Assembly: GCA_002440965.1 (NCBI GenBank)
Contig: DJWJ01000015.1
Span: forward strand, 34-64,033
Direction: 5' to 3'
DNA: 64,000 nucleotides
Source: Candidatus Omnitrophica bacterium UBA6233
GTDB lineage: Bacteria; Omnitrophota; Gorgyraeia; Gygaellales; Profunditerraquicolaceae
Part shown: positions 4,208 through 57,839 of the stretch, one piece after another
Position numbering within the stretch: the first letter of the stretch is position 1
How the letters are laid out: each line of letters opens with the position of its first letter
The notes under the pieces: generated by a model
Seen by the model: the letters and a program-made list of their open reading frames with translations, nothing else
The model's database searches: none
What the model was told of the DNA's origin: nothing
Program-made: the position numbers and the translations under genes

Positions 4208-4555
4208 TTGCTGGAAAATCAGGAAGTTAGAAGGCGATTCCAAAGAATAGATTTACGGGCGGAAATGCGCTACTATGTAAGAGGCGCCGCCTCGGAATTC
4301 GGCAGCGTCGTTTCCAATAATATAAGCGTCGGCGGATTGGGTTTTAACTCTGATAAATATATTGCTCCTCAAACGCCGTTAATGCTGGAAATCGATGTCC
4401 TCTCGAAGGTTCTGCATCCGGTTGGCAAGGTGGCTTGGTGCCAGGCTTTGCCGCGTTCTTACCGTAATAGCTTAGGCGTGGAATTCGTGGAGATTGATCC
4501 GCTCGAAAAGCATTATTTGGAAGACTACATTAATATGCAAACAAACAGGTTTTAA
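4208..4555 (+). CDS. PilZ domain protein (c-di-GMP receptor)
   Basis: 'RRRFQRIDLR' and 'NISVGGLGF' PilZ motifs; TTG start with a GGAG RBS. Confidence 0.7.
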   Translation: MLENQEVRRRFQRIDLRAEMRYYVRGAASEFGSVVSNNISVGGLGFNSDKYIAPQTPLMLEIDVLSKVLHPVGKVAWCQALPRSYRNSLGVEFVEIDPLEKHYLEDYINMQTNRF

Positions 4556-4575
4556 GGAAAGGAAAAACAAAGATT

Positions 4576-4767
4576 ATGGCAACTGAAGAAACTAAAGCGC
4601 AGGCGGCAGCGGAAGCTAAGCCCAAGGAAGAGAAGCAGACAAACTGTTTAAGCTGTAACAAGCCGATTAAGAAGATAAGGCGTTATTACCGCGACGGAAA
4701 ATACTATTGCACCAAAAAGTGCTGGTTAAGTTTTATCAAAAAATCCAAAACTGAAAATAAAGAATGA
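4576..4767 (+). CDS. Small lysine-rich protein with C4 zinc-ribbon (CxxC...CxxxC)
   Basis: 63 aa; 'CLSCNKP...YYCTKKC'; sits between two PilZ genes and overlaps the next gene by 4 nt. Confidence 0.45.
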   Translation: MATEETKAQAAAEAKPKEEKQTNCLSCNKPIKKIRRYYRDGKYYCTKKCWLSFIKKSKTENKE

Positions 4768-5147
4768 CATCCGGAATCGAAAGAAGAAACCATCCCCGGC
4801 TTGAGCATAAGCTGCCTTTTAAGGTAGCGGCGAACGGTTATGGTTTTTCAACCACTACTCAGAATGTCAGCTGCGTGGGGGCGTATTGCCGGATAAAAAA
4901 ATATATACCCCCGTTTACGAAGGTGGCGATTAAATTGACCCTTCCGTTGAAAAAAGAAGCCGGCAAAGCCAAGCGCACGATCGATTGCGAGGGGGTAATT
5001 GTCAGGACCGAGGATAAAGAGGATAAGAGCGGTTTCAATATCGCTATCTTTTTTAACCGGATAAATAATACCCAGCGCAAAATAATAAACGAATATATAG
5101 ATCAATTCCTGCCGCAAAGAGTTTCCCCAGCAATTTCTTTAAAGTAA
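4764..5147 (+). CDS. PilZ domain protein
   Basis: 'RRNHPRLEHKLPF' RxxxR motif and a DxSxxG-like region. Confidence 0.6.
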   Translation: MTSGIERRNHPRLEHKLPFKVAANGYGFSTTTQNVSCVGAYCRIKKYIPPFTKVAIKLTLPLKKEAGKAKRTIDCEGVIVRTEDKEDKSGFNIAIFFNRINNTQRKIINEYIDQFLPQRVSPAISLK

Positions 5148-5678: not shown

Positions 5679-6639
5679 GCCTGTTTATCTGGAGTCATTC
5701 CAGAACGGCGCGCTTGATAAGATAATCGATAAGGTTTTTGCGTCTTTGGAATCCTGCGCTCTCTGTCCGCGGAAATGCAAAGTCAACCGCTTAAGCGATA
5801 AAAAGGGTTTTTGCCGGACAGGTTTAAAGCCTAAAGTCTATAGCTATATGGCGCATCAGGGCGAAGAGCCGGCTATTTCCGGCTCGCGCGGTTCCGGAAC
5901 GATATTTTTTGCAAATTGCAATATGGGGTGTGTATATTGCCAGAACTATGAATTTAGCCAAACCGGGCAGGGCAGGGAGGTTGGTTTTGAGGAATTAGCC
6001 GGATTTATGCTTGAGCTGCAGAAGATGGGCTGCCACAACATCAATTTAGTAACCCCAACTCATATTTTACCCCAAATTCTTAAAAGTTTGAAAATCGCCA
6101 TTTCCAGCGGTCTGAATATTCCGTTAGTCTATAACACCGGCGGTTACGAATCAGCCGAAATAATAAGATTGCTGGAAGGGATTGTGGATATATATTTACC
6201 GGATATGCGCTATGCCGATGAAGAGCAAGCGGTTAAGTTTTCCGGCGCTCCCGGCTATCCGGAGAATAATCAGGAGTCGGTAAAAGAGATGTTTCGCCAG
6301 GCGGGAACAGTTAAGCTGGATGAATCCGGGATAATCGAGCGGGGTTTGATTATAAGGCATCTTGTTTTGCCGAATAAAGTCAGCGGAACGGAAAAAATAA
6401 TGCGATTTATTTCCGAAAAACTTTCCGGCGACACCTATGTTAGCTTGATGAGCCAGTATTTACCGTATCATCGGGCTGCCGAATTTAAGGAAATAAGCCG
6501 CCGGCTGACGCTTAGTGAATATGAAGAGGCGCAGGATATGCTGGAAAAATATGGTTTGCATAACGGCTGGGTGCAGGAGTCATTCGGTTCAGAAAGGTTT
6601 GCGGGAGTAAACATAAAATCAATTCTTAAGAATGAATAG
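5653..6639 (+). CDS. Radical SAM enzyme, PflX/COG1313 family (PFL-activase-like; resembles AmmeMemoRadiSam-type rSAM)
   Basis: 'CALCPRKCKVNR...GFCRTG' N-terminal Cys cluster plus 'CNMGCVYCQN' CxxxCxxC radical SAM motif. Confidence 0.8.
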   Translation: MQNKPKINKPVYLESFQNGALDKIIDKVFASLESCALCPRKCKVNRLSDKKGFCRTGLKPKVYSYMAHQGEEPAISGSRGSGTIFFANCNMGCVYCQNYEFSQTGQGREVGFEELAGFMLELQKMGCHNINLVTPTHILPQILKSLKIAISSGLNIPLVYNTGGYESAEIIRLLEGIVDIYLPDMRYADEEQAVKFSGAPGYPENNQESVKEMFRQAGTVKLDESGIIERGLIIRHLVLPNKVSGTEKIMRFISEKLSGDTYVSLMSQYLPYHRAAEFKEISRRLTLSEYEEAQDMLEKYGLHNGWVQESFGSERFAGVNIKSILKNE

Positions 6640-7126
6640 AGCCGGGTTTTTCGACAAGCTTATAAGAATCAAAGAACTTTTGTATCAAAAGCTTTTTAAA
6701 ATCAACGATACTCCGCAAAAAGTAGCTTTGGGTTTCGGCGTAGGCGTGTTTACCGGGATCCTTCCGGGAACAGGGCCTTTGGCGGCTTTGTTTTTGGCGT
6801 TACTTTTTAAAGTAAACCGCGCCAGCGCCCTTATCGGCAGTATCCTTACTAATACCTGGCTTAGCCTGGCAACTTTTCTCTTGGCAATTAAAATTGGTTC
6901 TGCTATATTTGGAATTAGCTGGCAGGGCTTAAGAAGCGAGTGGGCCTTAACTATAAATAACTTCGCTTGGAAGGATTTCTTCAGCGGTTCTATTCTAAGG
7001 ATTGTTCTTCCGGTTGTATCCGGATACGCTATAGTTTCATTGTGCTTGGGGTTGTTTTCTTATTTTATAACTTTGGCAATACTTAAACGAAGGCGCCGGG
7101 ATCATTTACCGGATAATCTCGAATAA
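6632..7126 (+). CDS. DUF2062 family membrane protein
   Basis: 'ALGFGVGVFTGILPGTGPLAALFLALLF' signature; 8-nt overlap with the rSAM gene. Confidence 0.55.
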   Translation: MNRAGFFDKLIRIKELLYQKLFKINDTPQKVALGFGVGVFTGILPGTGPLAALFLALLFKVNRASALIGSILTNTWLSLATFLLAIKIGSAIFGISWQGLRSEWALTINNFAWKDFFSGSILRIVLPVVSGYAIVSLCLGLFSYFITLAILKRRRRDHLPDNLE

Positions 7127-12357: not shown

Positions 12358-12666
12358 ATGAACCAGAACAGCTTTAATCCTAAGGCGCGCTGGGATAGGT
12401 TTGAGCCGCAAGCCCAAGGTTTTAGTCCGGATGGTTTAGCCGAAAGGATTGAAGTTCTGGCTTATTTTAAAAACTCGCGCATTTACCCTAAAACTTTCCT
12501 TTGGAATGGCAAAGAATACAATATAGAAACTATGACCTACAATTGGCAGGAGAGTTTTGGCCAGGCATTGATTAATTATTTTTCAGTAATTAGTTCCGGA
12601 CAGCTCTATCAGATATCATTTAATAATTCCACCTTTCGTTGGCAGATCGATAAAATAATCCAATAA
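12358..12666 (+). CDS. Hypothetical protein (102 aa) in the SOS cassette between lexA and dinB
   Basis: 4 nt after the lexA stop; no recognisable family. Confidence 0.5.
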   Translation: MNQNSFNPKARWDRFEPQAQGFSPDGLAERIEVLAYFKNSRIYPKTFLWNGKEYNIETMTYNWQESFGQALINYFSVISSGQLYQISFNNSTFRWQIDKIIQ

Positions 12667-12674
12667 AATTAGAA

Positions 12675-12719
12675 AGGGACGGTTCTATGCTAAATGGCTA
12701 TACGAATAGAACCGTCCCT
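12675..12719. repeat. GC-rich palindromic element, short form (AGGGACGGTTCTAT-N17-ATAGAACCGTCCCT)
   Basis: 14-bp perfect inverted repeat; the same termini recur at 26242, 37276 and 47651. Confidence 0.8.
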
Positions 12720-18684: not shown

Positions 18685-19144
18685 CAGGTCTATGGTCTAT
18701 AGTCGATAGCCTATAGTTTTAAATAATTACGAAAGCTATGGAGCATTTTTGAGAGTTCTTCGCACCTTTTATAATATACATCAAATTCAGATTGTTTGAT
18801 ATATTTTTGTTCCAAGCTTAGGTATAATAAGGTAACTACTTCATATAAAGAACCAATAGCTATTTGCAGGAATCTTGCGAGGTCTGTGTCTGAACGCCTG
18901 CCTTCTCCTTCGGCGATATTTAGGCTTATAGATACTGCTGCCCTATTTAGCTGGCTAATAATGCCGAATTTTTCGTCTTCAGGGAATTTTTTGGTTAGGC
19001 TATAGACTTCTTTAGCAAATTTTACTGATTCTTGCCAGATTTTTTAAGCTTTCAAATTTAAACGCCATTTTCGTTTATTTACCTTTGGCCATCGACTATT
19101 GACCTGGAGCTATCAGGATAATCATAGGCCTAAAGCTATCAGAG
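18685..19144 (-). mobile_element. IVS-like element: four-helix-bundle gene flanked by ~20-bp terminal inverted repeats (CAGGTC..TATAGTCGATAGCC / GGCCATCGACTATTGACCTG)
   Basis: Flanking IRs at 18685-18716 and 19087-19144; solo IR-pair copies without the gene at 21781-21893 and 23369-23472. Confidence 0.35.
18711..19068 (-). pseudogene. Four-helix-bundle protein gene (23S rRNA-intervening-sequence protein family) with a +1 frameshift in an A6 run
   Basis: Translation reads 'MAFKFESLK' then, after removing one A at 19040-19045, 'IWQESVKFAKEVYSLTKKFPEDEKFGIISQLNRAAVSISLNIAEGEGRRSDTDLARFLQIAIGSLYEV...' (119 aa). As sequenced, frame 1 stops after 19 codons. Confidence 0.55.
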
Positions 19145-21780: not shown

Positions 21781-21893
21781 TGATAGCACAGGCCTAGTTT
21801 GTCCCGATACAACAGGCCTATAGTCTATAGTTTTTACTATTGACTATCGACTATTGACCTGAAGCTATTAGAGTTATAGCGACCTGCCATTTT
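21781..21893. repeat. Solo copy of the TATAGTC inverted-repeat element (IVS-like family)
   Basis: 'TGATAGCACAGG...CTATAGTCTATAGT..ACTATTGACTATCGACTATTGACCTGAAGCTATTAGAG'. Confidence 0.7.
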
Positions 21894-21907: not shown

Positions 21908-21981
21908 TGCCCCTGGCAGGAATCGAACCTGCCACACGCAGTTTAGGAAACTGCTGCTCTATCCTTATGAGCTACAGGGGC
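21908..21981 (-). tRNA. tRNA-Arg (anticodon CCT)
   Basis: Cloverleaf readable on the - strand: acceptor GCCCCTG/CAGGGGC, D-arm GCTC-ATAAGGATA-GAGC, anticodon stem GCAGT/ACTGC with loop TTCCTAA, T-arm GCAGG-TTCGATT-CCTGC; no encoded CCA. Confidence 0.8.
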
Positions 21982-23351: not shown

Positions 23352-23368
23352 AATTTATCCCAATAGAT

Positions 23369-23472
23369 TTAGGTCTATATTTATCCTGATAGCGCAGGTC
23401 TATAGTCAATAGTTTATTTTTGTTATTGACTATAGACTATTGACCTGAAGCTATCAGAGCCATATTGACCTG
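23369..23472. repeat. Solo copy of the TATAGTC inverted-repeat element, exactly filling the sigma-factor/ppdK spacer
   Basis: 'GATAGCGCAGGTCTATAGTCAATAG...TTGACTATAGACTATTGACCTGAAGCTATCAGAG'. Confidence 0.7.
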
Positions 23473-26241: not shown

Positions 26242-26316
26242 AGGGACGGTTCTCAAGCCAATCTTAAAGTGTCCCCCTAATGGGGACACTTTTGCCTTGA
26301 GTTGAGAACCGTCCCT
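26242..26316. repeat. GC-rich palindromic element, long form with nested hairpin (AGGGACGGTTCTCAA...GTGTCCCC-n5-GGGGACAC...TTGAGAACCGTCCCT)
   Basis: Same termini as 12675; near-identical copy at 37276-37350. Confidence 0.8.
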
Positions 26317-27619
26317 AAACTAATTTGTTGGACAAATATTCTTTTAATTTCTCTACTGGAATTCTCTCTTGTTGCATGGTATCACGGTCGCGAACAGTAA
26401 CTTGTTTGTCCTCCAGGCTCTGCACGTCAACCGTAACGCAAAAAAGCGTTCCTACCTCGTCCTGTCTTCGGTAAAGTTTGCCGATCGCGCCGGTATCATC
26501 ATAAACCGTAACAATAGTTTTCTTCAGATCCTGGGCGATTTTCTTAGCGAGTTCGACTATTTCCGGCCTGTTCCTTAAAAGCGGCAGCACTGCCACTTTG
26601 GTGGGAGCCAGGTCTTTGTGGATCTTTAAAACTACACGCAGGTCTTCTCTGACTTTTTCTTCGTGATAGGCATCTACCAAAAACGCCAAAACTGCCCGGT
26701 CAACTCCGCCCGAAGGCTCGATTATATAGGGGTAAAATCTTTCTTTTGCCGCGTCGTCAAAATACTGCAAGTCTTTACCGCTGTGCTGGGAATGTTGTTT
26801 TAGATCAAAATCCGTGCGGTTGGCAATTCCTTCCAGTTCGCTCCAGCCGAAAGGAAAATTGTATTCTACGTCAGTGCAGGCGCGGGCATAGTGCGCCAAT
26901 TCGTCTTTATCGTGCTGGCGTTGTCTCAAGCTTTCTTTTTTTATTCCGAGGCCAAGATACCAGTTAAAGCGGTAGGAAATCCATTCGTCAAGCGCCCTGT
27001 CTGCGTCAAGCGGCCGGACAAAATATTCAATCTCCATCTGTTCAAATTCCCTGGTGCGGAAAGTAAAATTCCCCGGAGTAATTTCATTGCGGAAAGATTT
27101 TCCGATTTGCGCCAAACCAAAGGGGAGTTTGGGATGCCGGGAATCAAGAATATTCAAAAAATTCACAAACATGCCTTGGGCAGTTTCCGGCCGCATATAT
27201 ATTTCATTGCCGCTTTCTTCTACCGGCCCCTGGTAGGTTTTAAACATCAGGTTAAAGGCCTTAGCTTCAGTGAGCGCGCCGCCACATTCAGGGCATTTGT
27301 TTTTATCCTTAAGGTCCTCGCTCTTGAAACGTTTTTTACAATTTTTACAGTCGCTCTTTAAATCGAAAAAATTCTGCACGTGTCCCGAAGCTTCCCAGAC
27401 TTTAGGGTGCATAAGGATAGCCGCGTCCATGCCGAAAATATCATTACGCTCGTAAACATTCGCCTTCCACCAGGCGCGCTTAAGGTTATTCTTAAGCTCA
27501 ACGCCGTATGGGCCGTAATCCCAGGTATTGCTTAGGCCTCCGTAAATATCCGAAGACTGGAATATAAAACCTCTGCGTTTGCAAAGGGAAACTATTTTTT
27601 CCATCAGGTTATCGCTCAT
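26315..27619 (-). CDS. glyQS: Glycine--tRNA ligase (alpha2 dimeric type)
   Basis: 'LCKRRGFIFQSSDIYGGLSNTWDYGPYGVELKNNLKRAWW' matches the GlyQS N-terminus. The first 13 ORF-track codons are a likely extension. Confidence 0.9.
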   Translation of the reverse strand: MSDNLMEKIVSLCKRRGFIFQSSDIYGGLSNTWDYGPYGVELKNNLKRAWWKANVYERNDIFGMDAAILMHPKVWEASGHVQNFFDLKSDCKNCKKRFKSEDLKDKNKCPECGGALTEAKAFNLMFKTYQGPVEESGNEIYMRPETAQGMFVNFLNILDSRHPKLPFGLAQIGKSFRNEITPGNFTFRTREFEQMEIEYFVRPLDADRALDEWISYRFNWYLGLGIKKESLRQRQHDKDELAHYARACTDVEYNFPFGWSELEGIANRTDFDLKQHSQHSGKDLQYFDDAAKERFYPYIIEPSGGVDRAVLAFLVDAYHEEKVREDLRVVLKIHKDLAPTKVAVLPLLRNRPEIVELAKKIAQDLKKTIVTVYDDTGAIGKLYRRQDEVGTLFCVTVDVQSLEDKQVTVRDRDTMQQERIPVEKLKEYLSNKLV

Positions 27620-37275: not shown

Positions 37276-37350
37276 AGGGACGGTTCTCAACTCAAGGCAA
37301 AAGTGTCCCCTTAATAGGGACACTTTTAGCTTAGTTTGAGAACCGTCCCT
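37276..37350. repeat. GC-rich palindromic element, long form (copy of 26242-26316)
   Basis: AGGGACGGTTCTCAACTCAAGGC..GTGTCCCC-ttaat-AGGGACAC..GAGAACCGTCCCT. Confidence 0.8.
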
Positions 37351-47650: not shown

Positions 47651-47695
47651 AGGGACGGTTCTAGGCTAAATAGCTCTTAGAATAGAACCGTCCCT
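47651..47695. repeat. GC-rich palindromic element, short form (AGGGACGGTTCTAG-N17-ATAGAACCGTCCCT)
   Basis: Near-identical to 12675-12719, including the loop 'gctaaatRgct'. Confidence 0.8.
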
Positions 47696-53639: not shown

Positions 53640-56274
53640 CTTTCACCCCTTTTAATTTTTGCACCTCGTCCTTTAGGTTATTTAATTTCTCCTTCTCTTT
53701 TCCTACGATTTCAGCGGGCGCCCGATTTAAGAAGTTTTTATCGGAGAGCATCTTTTCTTTTGAAATGATGTCGTTTTGAGCTTTTTTGATTTTGGTTTCG
53801 ATTTTCTCTTTGTGTTTTTCTATATCGATTACTCCAGCCAAAGGAATAGTTATATGCATATCCTTTAAAACGCTGGTAAATTCTCCGGCGGTTTTCTTAT
53901 ATTCGCTTAAAATCTCCAGCTTATTTAATCTGGCTAAACTTTTAATTTGACCGGAGAGTGATTCCAGGACTGTCTTTTTTGTTTCTCCGGAAGTAGCGAT
54001 TTTAACGCCTACATTTTCTTCTTGAGCAGGGATATCAAGTTCAAGCCGCATATTTCTTATGGCGGAGATTATTTCTATAGCCTCTTGCATTGTTTTCTCG
54101 GCCTTTGGATCGATTATATCTTCCTGGATATGCGGCCATGCCGAAACCATAATAGAATTATCATTGTTAGGGAGTTTGTGCCAGAGTTCTTCGGTAATAA
54201 AAGGCATAAATGGGTGCAAAACCCTTAAGGACTTTTCAAGGATTTTATACATTACGACCTGGTTATGTGGAGAGCGGATATCTGATTTAATGATCTCAAG
54301 GTACCAATCGCAGAATTCATGCCAAAAGAAAGAATAAAGCGAATTAGCTGCTTCATTAAATTGGTAATTCTCAAGGTTTTTTTCAACTTCTTTAAGAGTA
54401 GAATAAAATCTGCTTAATATCCAGCGGTTGACTAAGCTTAAGCCTTCTTTCTTAAAGAATACGCAAAGATCAGTTTTTACGAGTGTAGTATCCAAATTAA
54501 TCAAAATAAACCTGGAAGCGTTCCAGATTTTATTGGCAAAGTTTCTTCCCTGTTCAAACCTTTCTTTGGATAAAAATACATCCTGTCCCTGGGCTGTAAT
54601 GGAAATAAGGCTAAAGCGTAAAGCATCGGTACCATACTCATTGATGATTTCCAGCGGATCGATAATATTGCCCAGTGACTTGGACATTTTTTTACCTTCA
54701 ACGTCGCGCACTGTTCCGTGAATATAGACATCTTTAAAGGGAGCTTCCTGCATAAATTCAAATCCGGCCATAATCATCCGGGCTACCCAGAAGAAGATTA
54801 TCTCGGGCGCGGTAACCAGGGTTGAGGTGGGATAAAAATATTTTAAATCTTCTTTATTCTTGAAAGTAGCAAAAGGCCATAACCAGGAGGAGAACCAGGT
54901 ATCCAGCACATCTTCATCCTGGTAAATTTCCAAAGATCCGCATTCCGGGCATTTTTCCGGTTTTGTTTTGCTAACGAGTACGCCTTTTTCAGGATTTTCT
55001 TTTTGACAATTTAAGCAATAGTATACCGGTAAGCGGTGCCCCCACCAGATCTGCCTGGAAATGCACCAATCCTGGATATTCTCCATCCAATTCAGGTAAA
55101 CTTTGGTCCAGCGATTCGGGTAAAATTTAATCTTTCCTTTTTTAACCGCTTCCAATGCGGGTTTGGCAAGAGGTTTCATTTTTACAAACCATTGTTTGGA
55201 TAAATAAGGCTCGATAATAGTGTGGCAGCGGTAACAATGCCCGGCTGATAAAGGATGCGGCTCAATCTTTTCCAGTAATTTTATCTCTTTTAAGTCTTCC
55301 AAAATTACTTCTCTGGCTTCGAACCTGTCCATTCCGTTATATTCACCGGCATTCTGATTTAAGGTAGCATTGGGGTGCATAACATTGATAAATTCAAGGT
55401 TATGTTTTTTGCCCATCGCGTAATCATTCGGATCATGCGCTGGAGTAACTTTGACTGCTCCTGTCCCGAATTCCATATCAACCATATTATCCGCGATAAT
55501 TTTTATTTCGCGGTTGATTAAAGGAAGGATTAAAATTTTACCGACTAAATTCTTATACCGTTTATCTTTTGGATTAACCGCGACCGCTGTATCTCCCAGC
55601 ATGGTTTCCGGACGGGTGGTGGCTACGATTACAAATTCATTCGGGTTATCTTTGAGCGGGTATTTTAAATAGTAAAGATTGCCTTGCAGATCTTTATGCG
55701 GAGCTTCCTCGTCGGATAAAGCAGTCTGGCAGCGCGGGCACCAGTTTATTATGTAGCTTCCCCGGTAAATCAAACCTTTTTCATATAATTTGACAAAAAC
55801 ATCCACGACTGCTTTGGAATATTCCTCGTCCATGGTAAAACGCAGGCGCTTCCAATCGCAGGACGCGCCTAATTTCTTGAGTTGGCGGATAATCGTTGAG
55901 CCGTATTGTTCTTTCCAAACCCAGACGCGCTCAATGAATTTCTCACGGCCAAGATCCTGGCGCTTTAATCCTTCTTTGGCAATTGATTTTTCGACTACAT
56001 TTTGAGTGGCAATACCCGCGTGGTCAGTTCCCGGCATCCATAGAGCTTCTTTCCCTCGCATTCTTTGATAGCGGATGAGAATATCCTGGATAGTATCATT
56101 TAAAGCATGGCCCATATGCAAGATGCCGGTTACATTGGGCGGAGGAATGACTATGGTGTACGGTTTTTTCGCGGGGTCGGGTTTAGCGGCGGATAAATTA
56201 TTATCTTCCCAAAATTTATACCATTTATCCTCGGTTTCTTTGGGATTGTATTGCTTTGGAATCTCATCAATCAT
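53626..56274 (-). CDS. valS: Valine--tRNA ligase
   Basis: 'PPPNVTGILHMGHALN' HIGH motif, 'KMSKS', C-terminal coiled coil. Confidence 0.9.
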   Translation of the reverse strand: MIDEIPKQYNPKETEDKWYKFWEDNNLSAAKPDPAKKPYTIVIPPPNVTGILHMGHALNDTIQDILIRYQRMRGKEALWMPGTDHAGIATQNVVEKSIAKEGLKRQDLGREKFIERVWVWKEQYGSTIIRQLKKLGASCDWKRLRFTMDEEYSKAVVDVFVKLYEKGLIYRGSYIINWCPRCQTALSDEEAPHKDLQGNLYYLKYPLKDNPNEFVIVATTRPETMLGDTAVAVNPKDKRYKNLVGKILILPLINREIKIIADNMVDMEFGTGAVKVTPAHDPNDYAMGKKHNLEFINVMHPNATLNQNAGEYNGMDRFEAREVILEDLKEIKLLEKIEPHPLSAGHCYRCHTIIEPYLSKQWFVKMKPLAKPALEAVKKGKIKFYPNRWTKVYLNWMENIQDWCISRQIWWGHRLPVYYCLNCQKENPEKGVLVSKTKPEKCPECGSLEIYQDEDVLDTWFSSWLWPFATFKNKEDLKYFYPTSTLVTAPEIIFFWVARMIMAGFEFMQEAPFKDVYIHGTVRDVEGKKMSKSLGNIIDPLEIINEYGTDALRFSLISITAQGQDVFLSKERFEQGRNFANKIWNASRFILINLDTTLVKTDLCVFFKKEGLSLVNRWILSRFYSTLKEVEKNLENYQFNEAANSLYSFFWHEFCDWYLEIIKSDIRSPHNQVVMYKILEKSLRVLHPFMPFITEELWHKLPNNDNSIMVSAWPHIQEDIIDPKAEKTMQEAIEIISAIRNMRLELDIPAQEENVGVKIATSGETKKTVLESLSGQIKSLARLNKLEILSEYKKTAGEFTSVLKDMHITIPLAGVIDIEKHKEKIETKIKKAQNDIISKEKMLSDKNFLNRAPAEIVGKEKEKLNNLKDEVQKLKGVKDGLR

Positions 56275-57839
56275 TTAGCGTTATCTTTAAGAAGTTTATA
56301 TTCGATGCTGTCAACCAGGGCTTGCCAGCTGGCTTCGATGATATTTCCCGATACGCCAATAGTATTCCAGCTTTCCAATTCATCCTGGGACTGAATCAAA
56401 ACCCTGACTCTGGCGGCTGTGCCTGCTTTTTCATCCAGCACGCGGACTTTAAAATCAGAAAGATGCATTTTAGAAAGCGTAGGATAGAAATCTTTTAAAG
56501 CTTTACGCAAAGCGTTATCCAGGGCATTGACCGGACCGTCCCCATCAGCGGCAGTATGTTCTTTCACTCCCTTTACCTTAATTTTGATAATTGCTTCGGT
56601 GGTGATCTCTTTATCGGATTTTTTTTCAATTACCACTCGAAAACCCTCTAGCTCAAAAAATTTCTTGTATTTTTTAAGGGCGCGTTTCATTAAGAGATCA
56701 AAAGATCCTTCAGCTGCTTCGAAGTGGTATCCTTCGTGCTCTAGTTTTTGCACAAGCTTGAGAATCTTTTTGGTTTTCGGGTCTTCCTTGTTCAAATCCA
56801 GGTCAATATCTTTTGCCCGGATCAATACTCCGGTTTTTCCGGCAAGTTCCGAAACCAGGATCCTGCGGTGATTTCCTACCAATGTAGGATCGATATGTTC
56901 ATAGGTCAAGGAATTTTTCATTACCGCGTTGATGTGCATTCCGCCTTTATGGGCAAAACTGGATTCGCCGACATACGGCTGATCCGGACGCTGCCTCATA
57001 TTGCTGATTTCACTTATGAAATGCGACACATGGGTCAATTCTTTTAATTTATCATCAGGTATACAATCAACACCCATTTTTAATTTTAAATTGGCAATAA
57101 TCGGGATTAAATCCGCGTTCCCGCAGCGTTCGCCAATGCCGTTAATGGTCCCTTGGATCATATCTGCGCCGGCTTCCACCGCGGCCAGAGAATTAGCAAT
57201 GGCTAATCCGGCATCATTATGGCAATGAATGCCGAGGTTGACATTGATCTTGCCACGGATTGCGGCTGTTATATCCTTGATTTCGGAAGTTAGTGTTCCT
57301 CCGTTGGTATCGCAGAGGCAAATTGCTTTTGCTCCGGCTTCCTGGGCGCAAAGAACAGTTTTTAAAGCGTAGCTGCTATTTGCTTTATAAGCGTCAAAGA
57401 AATGCTCAGCATCGTAAAAAACAGTTATTCCTTTGGAAGCCAGAAAGCTCACTGTATCTTTGATCATCTCCAGATTTTCATCAAGCGTGGCTTTTAAAAC
57501 ATCGGTTACATGCATATCCCAGGTTTTACCGACGATAGTGATAATTTCAGTTTGTGATTTAAACAAGGCTTTGATGTTCGGATCTTCCGAAGCTTTTGAG
57601 TTAAGCCTGCGGGTCATGCTAAAAGCGCAAAGTTTACTGTTCTTTAGCCTGATTTTAGACATTTTCAGGAAAAAATCCATATCCTTGGGATTAGAGCCGG
57701 GCCATCCGCCTTCGATATATTGGACTCCCAGCAAATCCAATTCTTTGGCAATACTAACCTTATCCATTGCTGAATAAGAGATACCTTCTCCTTGAGCTCC
57801 GTCGCGTAAAGTCGTATCGTAAATTTTAACTTTAAGCAT
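56271..57839 (-). CDS. Citramalate / 2-isopropylmalate synthase family (CimA-like)
   Basis: 'LKVKIYDTTLRDGAQGEGISYS' DRE-TIM start plus LeuA-dimerisation C-domain; embedded in a thr/ile biosynthesis array. Confidence 0.8.
   Translation of the reverse strand: MLKVKIYDTTLRDGAQGEGISYSAMDKVSIAKELDLLGVQYIEGGWPGSNPKDMDFFLKMSKIRLKNSKLCAFSMTRRLNSKASEDPNIKALFKSQTEIITIVGKTWDMHVTDVLKATLDENLEMIKDTVSFLASKGITVFYDAEHFFDAYKANSSYALKTVLCAQEAGAKAICLCDTNGGTLTSEIKDITAAIRGKINVNLGIHCHNDAGLAIANSLAAVEAGADMIQGTINGIGERCGNADLIPIIANLKLKMGVDCIPDDKLKELTHVSHFISEISNMRQRPDQPYVGESSFAHKGGMHINAVMKNSLTYEHIDPTLVGNHRRILVSELAGKTGVLIRAKDIDLDLNKEDPKTKKILKLVQKLEHEGYHFEAAEGSFDLLMKRALKKYKKFFELEGFRVVIEKKSDKEITTEAIIKIKVKGVKEHTAADGDGPVNALDNALRKALKDFYPTLSKMHLSDFKVRVLDEKAGTAARVRVLIQSQDELESWNTIGVSGNIIEASWQALVDSIEYKLLKDNAK

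Follow-up and report, generated by a model that had tools for sequence, protein, structure and literature searches.

What are the GC-rich palindromes that recur beside stop codons in a 64-kb stretch of an Omnitrophota genome, and how might they have come to lie there? The stretch, here called the window, comprises 64,000 nucleotides of Candidatus Omnitrophica bacterium UBA6233 (contig DJWJ01000015.1, positions 34 to 64,033), and a preliminary description of it had listed four such palindromes and compared them with repetitive extragenic palindromic (REP) or enterobacterial repetitive intergenic consensus (ERIC) elements that stabilise or terminate transcripts at the 3' ends of genes. Comparing sequences across genomes, we arrive, with a probability of roughly 0.8, at the reading that they are non-autonomous mobile palindromes of REP/REPIN type, the dispersed terminal inverted repeats (TIRs) of a TIRtron, derived from a unit that carries a gene for a REP-associated tyrosine transposase (RAYT). 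We observed the repeat family itself, its anatomy, its association with a RAYT gene in relatives, the absence of target-site duplications (TSDs) and the polymorphism between filled and empty sites. The result is an abundant repeat family linked to a RAYT in the Omnitrophota, a phylum known mainly from metagenome-assembled genomes (MAGs).

Results

The arms of the palindromes bound a transposase gene in related Omnitrophota

We counted eight exact occurrences of the 12-mer AGGGACGGTTCT in the window, where about 0.008 would be expected by chance (by arithmetic), and the eight form four inverted pairs, each of the four elements ending in exact 12-nt inverted repeats (AGGGACGGTTCT/AGAACCGTCCCT). 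With up to two mismatches allowed, we found 11 matches in the window versus 3.2 expected, a count that none of 100 shuffles attained. The exact pairs and the shuffle test thus confirm the four palindromes at the coordinates first given for them, with lengths of 45, 75, 75 and 45 bp. The perfectly conserved termini of 12–14 bp in the preliminary description hold for the 12 nt that are identical in all copies; the outer stem of 13–15 bp is perfect only within a copy.

A metagenome probe built from the arm of the long, 75-bp form (GGGACGGTTCTCAA-N8-12-AAGTGTCCC) returned at least 117 loci (780 kb; single loci are given L numbers below), 10 of which encode a RAYT homologue. In L184, L182, L163, L171, L219 and L230 the open reading frame (ORF; 158 aa in L219 and L163) lies directly between inverted arms of ~35 nt each, one reading (T/A)AGGGACGGTTCTCAA-N10-AAAGTGTCCCC and the other GGGGACACTT-N10-TTGAGAACCGTCCCT, and the ~60 nt from the left arm to the ORF contain a strong Shine-Dalgarno (SD) sequence. 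The contig of L164 begins inside the RAYT gene, so that the right arm alone is visible. We also picked loci by their protein, without recourse to the DNA probe; among these, both arms are exact in L251/L252 and L256/L258, and L253/L254 have one exact arm and one that is degenerate or decayed. Read from the outside in, the arms fall into two types, A (CAA[C/T]..), on the upstream side of the RAYT gene, and B (CAA[G/A]..), on its downstream side. Because the same arms flank the RAYT gene in these relatives, the 75-bp element is to be seen as an A and a B arm joined without the gene: the gene between them is deleted, and the two arms meet head to head across a loop of 5–6 nt. A further internal deletion, which spared just the outer 12–14 bp, accounts for the 45-bp form; this is a small subfamily, with two related copies at different loci in the window, and the related contigs hold other short derivatives, of 35 and 50 bp, that are visibly internal deletions. 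The REP-like character with an associated RAYT, as first suggested, is therefore upheld by the arms in Omnitrophota, and also by the core arrays around a RAYT in a Clostridiales MAG that are described below.

The Omnitrophota RAYT proteins (156–158 aa) contain the motifs NHVH (HUH), WQDRFKSK and YIE[NTA]NP, score 78.4 and 82.2 bits on the NCBIfam model for REP-associated tyrosine transposases (NF047646, cut-off 80) and 25 bits on the NCBIfam IS200 model, and have a precomputed family match to PF01797; their sole match in the PDB is the E. coli TnpA-REP (4ER8). We found ~700 homologues of this length at 68–99% identity, several of them annotated as Omnitrophota. The window is itself from a MAG of this phylum, and homologous RAYTs are annotated in Omnitrophota MAGs, which adds to the support for a RAYT-linked origin of the elements. 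In every lineage sampled the gene adjoins mnmG, and this one fixed locus therefore suggests vertical inheritance of a single RAYT gene.

Some candidates were set aside. Three RAYT clusters considered as the window organism's own were traced to other samples, and the RAYT-like gene of L155 is flanked by an unrelated inverted repeat in place of the core. The RAYT-like genes of the Omnitrophota contigs L183 and L177 have lost the HUH motif and have no core flanks; in their proteins (L183, 5110–6114; L177, reverse strand, 355-aa ORF) HUH is replaced by TESH and a long C-terminal tail, coiled-coil-like and hydrophobic, is fused, and they may be inactivated, exapted derivatives. We also noted that very many RAYT-bearing contigs in the protein match tables measure just ~900–1500 bp, with little beyond the gene, as would be expected were assemblies to break at the flanking repeats; RAYT loci and the repeats around them are probably under-represented in MAGs.

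Dispersed elements are heterodimeric, lack target-site duplications and have empty counterparts

The probe loci hold 98 paired elements with 95 distinct sequences, 52 of them exactly 75 bp long, and only 5/94 elements fall within rough ORF calls. As in the gene-carrying unit, most dispersed elements are A/B heterodimers (72/86). In 47 oriented 75-mers, positions 1–15 are paired, positions 21–24 are mostly unpaired and an 11-bp apical stem follows; position 16 is unpaired as well, a mismatch that is not independent of the arm definition because that position defines the A and B arms. The two arms of one element never had complementary 4-nt cassettes (0/47 vs. 6.8 expected, P at most 0.0005), and the same cassettes are present on both arm types; perfect palindromy is therefore avoided.

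In 57% of cases a T stands ahead of the 12-mer and in 32% a C, and the ends therefore read YAGGGAC...GTCCCTR. Adjacent direct repeats were missing from 67 of 72 oriented elements, a share equal to that in shuffles, and neither a TSD nor a TA target gave a signal among these 72. Transposases of the Y1 type are expected to leave no TSD. The absence of TSDs therefore fits a Y1/HUH enzyme and speaks against a miniature inverted-repeat transposable element (MITE) of the DDE type. Relative to transcription, elements lie in the same orientation in 32 cases and in the opposite one in 18, a bias that is not significant.

Orthologous sites were found both with and without an element: one is present in L162 and absent from L238 and L247, and the pairs L155 and L146, L226 and L168, and L225 and L196 differ in the same way, the first of each pair being filled. 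The window itself has an empty site at 56271–56281, where a leuA-like gene and valS overlap as ATGA; at the same junction in L192 a 75-bp element is inserted between the two genes, and both the stop codon and the spacer there are new.

The terminal core of RAYT-linked repeats recurs in genomes labelled as several phyla

We searched species-representative genomes with the pattern GGGACGGTTCT-N21-51-AGAACCGTCCC and obtained at least 120 loci, which we assigned to phyla by the titles of their records, many of these belonging to MAGs. Among the matches listed, genomes with labels from at least seven phyla contain inverted pairs of the 11-nt core GGGACGGTTCT; these phyla include Bacillota (with isolates of Neobacillus, Rossellomorea, Butyrivibrio and Falsibacillus), Bacteroidota, Actinomycetota (with Micropruina glycogenica), Omnitrophota, Elusimicrobiota, Atribacterota and deltaproteobacterial lineages. 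In these diverse loci the interior of the element varies in length and sequence. The core can also form the loop of a short, species-specific hairpin: perfect stems of 6 bp or more were counted in ~125 of 349 contexts versus 8.5 expected, and the arrangement is present in many Bacillota and Bacteroidota loci; for the window copies we rejected it, as stems there reach 4 bp at most. Phage carriage likewise found no support, since of 2.9 million viral contigs just 10 matched the pattern. In some loci the core is repeated in tandem or nested arrays with a period of 21–23 bp. Such arrays were seen in Bacillota and Actinomycetota (L022 at 1302–1396, 4449–4564 and 5710–5783; L097 at 4809–4980; L095 at 7011–7096; L100 at 4624–4714), and in L022 a 10-nt spacer alternates with its own reverse complement, which allows every core to form the loop of a 10-bp hairpin.

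In L022, from the Clostridiales MAG UBA3678, the flanks of a RAYT of 258 aa (PF01797, E 2.5e-16; NF047646, 69.8 bits) contain six GGGACGGTTCT units in tandem and four inverted ones; this RAYT is ~36–44% identical to the Omnitrophota RAYT in the protein core. Homologues of the L022 protein are flanked by the exact core in L131–133 and by variant cores elsewhere (GGGACCGGTTCT in L125–127, GGGACAGTCCC in L124, GGGACATTTTGTACC in L128), and all flanking cores at RAYTs of this type begin GGGAC and fit the motif GGGGWSAS. One core, GGGACGGTTCT, thus stands at RAYTs of both Omnitrophota and Clostridia and offers a conserved protein-DNA pair for the study of RAYT substrate recognition. We observed separately that the synteny of these ~260-aa RAYTs, each ~50% identical to the L022 protein, is conserved in gut and other Clostridia (L125–L133 and L124/L022), where the gene lies between yunB/sipL-like and hydrogenase genes or beside recD2/comF, which suggests long vertical inheritance.

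The four window copies and their neighbours

The first copy, c1, is a short form of 45 bp on the plus strand (12675–12719) with a 14-bp outer stem and a loop that includes GCTAAATGGCT; it sits between the stop codon of orf102 (12664–12666), 8 nt away, and the dinB ATG (12727), 7 nt away. The other short form, c4 (47651–47695, plus strand, 45 bp), has a 13-bp outer stem and a loop that includes GCTAAATAGCT, lies 22 nt past the groEL stop codon and is followed, 3' on the transcribed strand, by TTAATTTTCTC and then by a promoter-like TTGACA-17-TAAAAT. As first noted, both short forms have the loop GCTAAATRGCT in common. The long form c2 (26242–26316, minus strand, 75 bp) includes the nested hairpin GTGTCCCC-CTAAT-GGGGACAC (26269–26289) and runs from A arm to B arm on the minus strand, the direction in which glyS and ppdK are transcribed. 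The second long form, c3 (37276–37350, plus strand, 75 bp), runs from A to B on the plus strand, antisense to the transcription of the LysM gene and phoH, 5 nt past the stop codon of the former and 8 nt ahead of the ATG of the latter; its nested hairpin (37303–37323) is imperfect (GTGTCCCC-TTAATA-GGGACAC), so that the 5-nt loop once ascribed to both long forms applies to c2 only. On the plus strand c2 and c3 are mutual reverse complements, though both lie within minus-strand operons, and the short copies c1 and c4 are likewise opposite in orientation relative to transcription.

The glyS stop codon, TAG (26315–26317, minus strand), consists of a flanking T and the first two bases of the element, AG, and thus lies at −2 nt; an overlap of this kind recurs in 6/65 contexts in related contigs. 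The rule that every copy begins within ~10 nt of a stop codon consequently holds for orf102, glyS and the LysM gene and fails for groEL. Two copies, those before dinB and phoH, are equally near the next start codon, and 3/4 lie 7–30 nt upstream of the next co-directional start. Pfam upheld the identities first proposed for the neighbouring genes, namely orf102 (no family) and IMS-DinB, class II GlyRS and PPDK, LysM and PhoH, and Cpn60 (GroEL) and an IMPDH-like protein. We also agree that the ORFs in which dinB and ppdK are extended into the elements (starts 12694 and 26289, respectively) are artefactual, because the Pfam domains fit the shorter proteins, beginning at residue 5 (DinB) and residue 23 (PPDK), and because the orthologues start past the element. 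The repeat therefore explains two ORF-calling artefacts as well as a donated glyS stop codon, and masking the family in annotation pipelines would avert such false N-terminal extensions.

An RNA-folding check proposed for these copies found all of them to be very stable, with predicted RNA hairpins of −23 to −50 kcal/mol (z-scores −6 to −10.7); predicted DNA folds came to −14 and −30 kcal/mol. At the gathering threshold Rfam matched none of the elements in the window, an E-value scan of c2 gave chance-level matches only (E 0.3–0.5), and a literature search for the literal repeat sequence returned unrelated primer matches only. The window PhoH is identical to NCBI MFA5062490.1 and MFA5345634.1, and the window sequence is also present in ENA, JGI and Logan assemblies; samples that contain the organism are ERZ27315056, JGI 3300037067 and SRR5323216.

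Two of these junctions are filled in other species as well. Between orf102 and dinB, L246 and L144 (~58% protein identity) have the 75-bp long form where the window has the short one; between glyS and ppdK, L162 (84% identity) has the long form in the same orientation and L217 has half an element. In these last two loci the GlyRS frame enters the element and meets a stop codon within it, which appends RDGS* to the protein in L162 and GDTSPLV* in L217, and the element therefore reshapes protein C-termini.

Elements lie in tight spacers after genes, and few resemble terminators

For placement we used rough ORF calls (longest ORFs with greedy removal of overlaps), and counts near gene starts are therefore approximate. 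Of the elements classified in the Omnitrophota-type loci, 51 separate co-directional genes, 3 convergent genes and none divergent genes (background 358/25/17). In the diverse genomes the corresponding counts are 55, 31 and 4 (60.6, 16.7 and 12.8 expected), and elements are separated from facing 3' ends by a median of 19 nt and from facing 5' ends by a median of 102 nt. These counts and distances establish a 3'-end bias that is real at the level of the family, and with it the placement near gene 3' ends that was proposed from the four window copies.

The role of terminating hairpin that accompanied that proposal did not generalise. T-rich flanks are found on ~10% of element flanks per side (4.6% in background), 82 of 102 elements have none on either side, orientation is unconstrained, and a terminator scan of two copies, those at 26242 and 47651, called none at either. 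With so few T-tracts, most copies are not canonical terminators. The groEL copy at 47651 has a partial T-rich tail and, with its promoter-like site, is the only one that looks like a terminator substitute.

At 54 co-directional junctions the distance from stop codon to element has a median of 5 nt (interquartile range (IQR) 4–8) and that from element to start codon a median of 10 nt (IQR 8–14); the background spacer at co-directional junctions has a median of 15 nt (IQR −1 to 67). An SD-like tetramer at −18..−4 precedes only 2 of 34 starts that lie within 11 nt of an element, versus ~52% in element-free junctions. The typical layout is thus a stop codon, ~5 nt, a hairpin, ~10 nt and a start codon without an SD motif, which gives a testable lead on the way in which compact genomes fit very stable hairpins into their operons.

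Discussion

Comparison with known systems

REP doublets associated with tyrosine transposases were reportedly described by Nunvar in 2010. The family resembles the REPIN-RAYT system, in which such doublets go together with a RAYT (Bertels and Rainey, 2011; PMC3116915), in several respects: the elements are short extragenic palindromes in which two inverted units pair into a long, imperfect hairpin, they are dispersed in tens to hundreds of copies without TSDs and placed after genes, the same units flank a Y1/HUH gene that has one fixed locus in the contigs sampled, and the arms are heterodimeric, as noted for many REP families (PMC3733652). It differs from REPs in that the conserved part is an 11–12-nt terminal core, (Y)AGGGACGGTTCT, together with the inner GGGGACAC, in that single arms of the Omnitrophota type are not hairpins by themselves, and in that the core is common to at least seven labelled phyla, whereas classical REPs are lineage-specific. 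The REPs tagged with CGTC (Di Nocera) were considered and rejected; the reverse core does contain CGTC, but those repeats are stems of 8–9 bp with loops of 4–5 nt and a CCA tail, and have no transposase.

In form the family is closer to TIRtrons, in which a RAYT-like gene is bounded by long TIRs and not by GTAG REPs, and TIR dimers are dispersed. The TIRs that flank TIRYT genes share GGGGWSAS (Di Nocera et al., 2013; PMC3733652), and the inner motif GGGGACAC fits this consensus at 8/8 positions and G+GGGACGG at 7/8; with arms of ~35 nt bounding the gene and dispersed dimers, the Omnitrophota unit has the features by which a TIRtron is recognised. The family functions like REPIN-RAYT, and its form is closest to TIRtron/TIRYT.

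Comparison with the described RAYT classes separates the proteins found here. Members of TnpA-Y1 subclass 2.1 have ~238 aa, a C-terminal tail resembling a helix-turn-helix (HTH) and the signature YIELNP / Y[IV]HLNP (PMC6006769), and both L022 (258 aa) and L074 (310 aa) fit them, with NH[VY]H, Y[IV]H.NP and a C-terminal tail. The Omnitrophota protein, of 156–158 aa, has WQ and YIExNP motifs and no C-terminal HTH tail, which places it outside subclass 2.1; its motifs are closer to the 2.4 signature (Table 1, PMC6006769), a likeness that does not amount to a subclass assignment. For subclass 2.1 no REP-like repeats were reported (Quentin et al., 2018; PMC6006769), and for RAYT group 1 the flanking 16-mers had only ~12 genome copies (Bertels et al., 2017; PMC5581495); the repeats here are by contrast abundant, the 780 kb selected with the probe containing 98 paired elements. 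Omnitrophota are not among the hosts in the cited REP/RAYT papers. What goes beyond these surveys is a terminal core that crosses phyla, two distinct arms with enforced mismatches, and the tight layout of stop codon, hairpin and start codon.

With the IS200/IS605 insertion sequences and their gene-less derivatives, the palindrome-associated transposable elements (PATEs), the family has in common a Y1/HUH transposase, the lack of a TSD, expected substrates of single-stranded DNA (ssDNA) and small non-autonomous derivatives. The ends of IS200/IS605 are, however, not mutual inverted repeats, each having its own subterminal hairpin; TnpA-IS200 has Y..Q where the RAYT here has Y..NP; and the gene here occupies one mnmG-adjacent locus in the contigs sampled and is not scattered like an insertion sequence. 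Correia, ERIC and RUP MITEs are also small TIR elements that are co-transcribed with their neighbours and form RNA hairpins, but they make TSDs (TA for Correia), depend on DDE or unknown transposases and are genus-specific. The initial likening to ERIC is accordingly a poor fit for an element that lacks a TSD and is tied to a Y1 transposase.

A mobile origin weighed against other readings

We propose that the two arms would pair on ssDNA into a long imperfect hairpin, with a 15-bp foot, a mismatch, a 4x4 internal loop and an 11-bp apical stem containing GGGGACAC/GTGTCCCC, and that a single-copy RAYT encoded elsewhere in the genome may recognise and cut this hairpin and copy or move it without leaving a TSD. 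Catalysis by the RAYT, the hairpin as its ssDNA substrate and the presence of a RAYT gene in the window genome are what we infer. Copies would then persist where they are tolerated, in tiny spacers after stop codons, and effects on mRNA would be secondary, such as a barrier to 3' exonucleases, occasional termination (groEL) and the dependence of an SD-less start on upstream translation. Several results weigh against such a mobile origin. A tblastn search of the 64-kb window found neither a RAYT nor mnmG, so that the search for a cognate RAYT suggested at the outset succeeded only in contigs from relatives within the Omnitrophota. The GT[AG]G foot of REPs is absent, with no GTAG or GTGG and with ends that read (Y)AGGGACGGTTCT. 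Single arms do not fold significantly alone, unlike the ends of IS200/IS605, and subterminal hairpins of that style were rejected for them. Junctions are filled across species whose flanking proteins are 58–84% identical, with the core invariant, and these shared fillings point to selection or to re-insertion at preferred sites and not to purely selfish drift; they reflect either long retention under constraint or repeated use of a site. Finally, the narrow geometry of stop codon, hairpin and start codon is not accounted for by a selfish-element model alone.

The shared fillings at orf102-dinB and glyS-ppdK and the narrow spacing would suit elements selected by the host as RNA, that is, 3' or intercistronic hairpins that terminate transcription, protect mRNA or set expression ratios and whose mobility is irrelevant today, as would the great stability of the hairpins, the T-rich tail and promoter-like site at groEL, and the enrichment between convergent and depletion between divergent genes in diverse genomes. 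We nevertheless regard this as rather unlikely to be the primary explanation, given that elements occur in both orientations, that T-rich tracts are missing from both sides of ~80% of them and the scan of two copies called no terminator, that most copies lie inside co-directional gene pairs, that orthologous sites can be empty and that the arms are the ends of a transposase unit; it is in any case compatible with a mobile origin and not exclusive of it. The same geometry admits a more specific and improbable version, in which the elements are hairpin bridges for translational coupling, whose folding brings the upstream stop codon and the SD-less start together. An element would insert at an overlapping or near-abutting junction, sometimes supplying the stop codon TAG; the stop would then lie ~5 nt before the stem and the start ~10 nt after it, and downstream translation would depend on a ribosome terminating at the stem or melting it, as in a bacterial analogue of termination-dependent shunting or re-initiation. 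Also improbable, in our view, is that the elements are DNA-level sites for a host or domesticated RAYT, serving in nucleoid organisation, supercoiling or the processing of replication forks or ssDNA, with their spread a by-product. RAYTs have been described as domesticated, single-copy genes (PMC5581495, PMC6006769), the gene here stays beside mnmG with 68–99% identity across ~700 homologues, and the 11-nt core does not vary among genomes bearing the labels of many phyla; a density of four copies per 64 kb and the intergenic placement are, however, explained equally well by tolerated insertions. Very improbable are classical MITEs of Correia or ERIC-like type moved by a DDE transposase that recognises the 12-nt TIRs. 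Their perfect TIRs, small size, intergenic position and two size classes would fit, and the T ahead of the element in 57% of cases gives ends like TA..TA, but no TSD rises above chance, and the Y1/HUH transposase is the only gene found between the arms, with no DDE transposase there in any locus.

Other repeats and RNA genes in the window

The sole Rfam match in the window at the gathering threshold is a tRNA gene on the minus strand (21908–21981). A second repeat family consists of runs of the heptamer GTC[T/A/G]ATA (18688–18708, 21816–21858 and 23398–23444), with eight matches at up to two mismatches versus 0.26 expected in the window, and at 23398–23437 the heptamers partly form 14-nt inverted arms, GTCTATAGTCAATA / TATTGACTATAGAC. 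Its insert at 23352–23472, after the ppdK stop codon, occupies the site at which L238 and L247 have a GGGACGGTTCT element.

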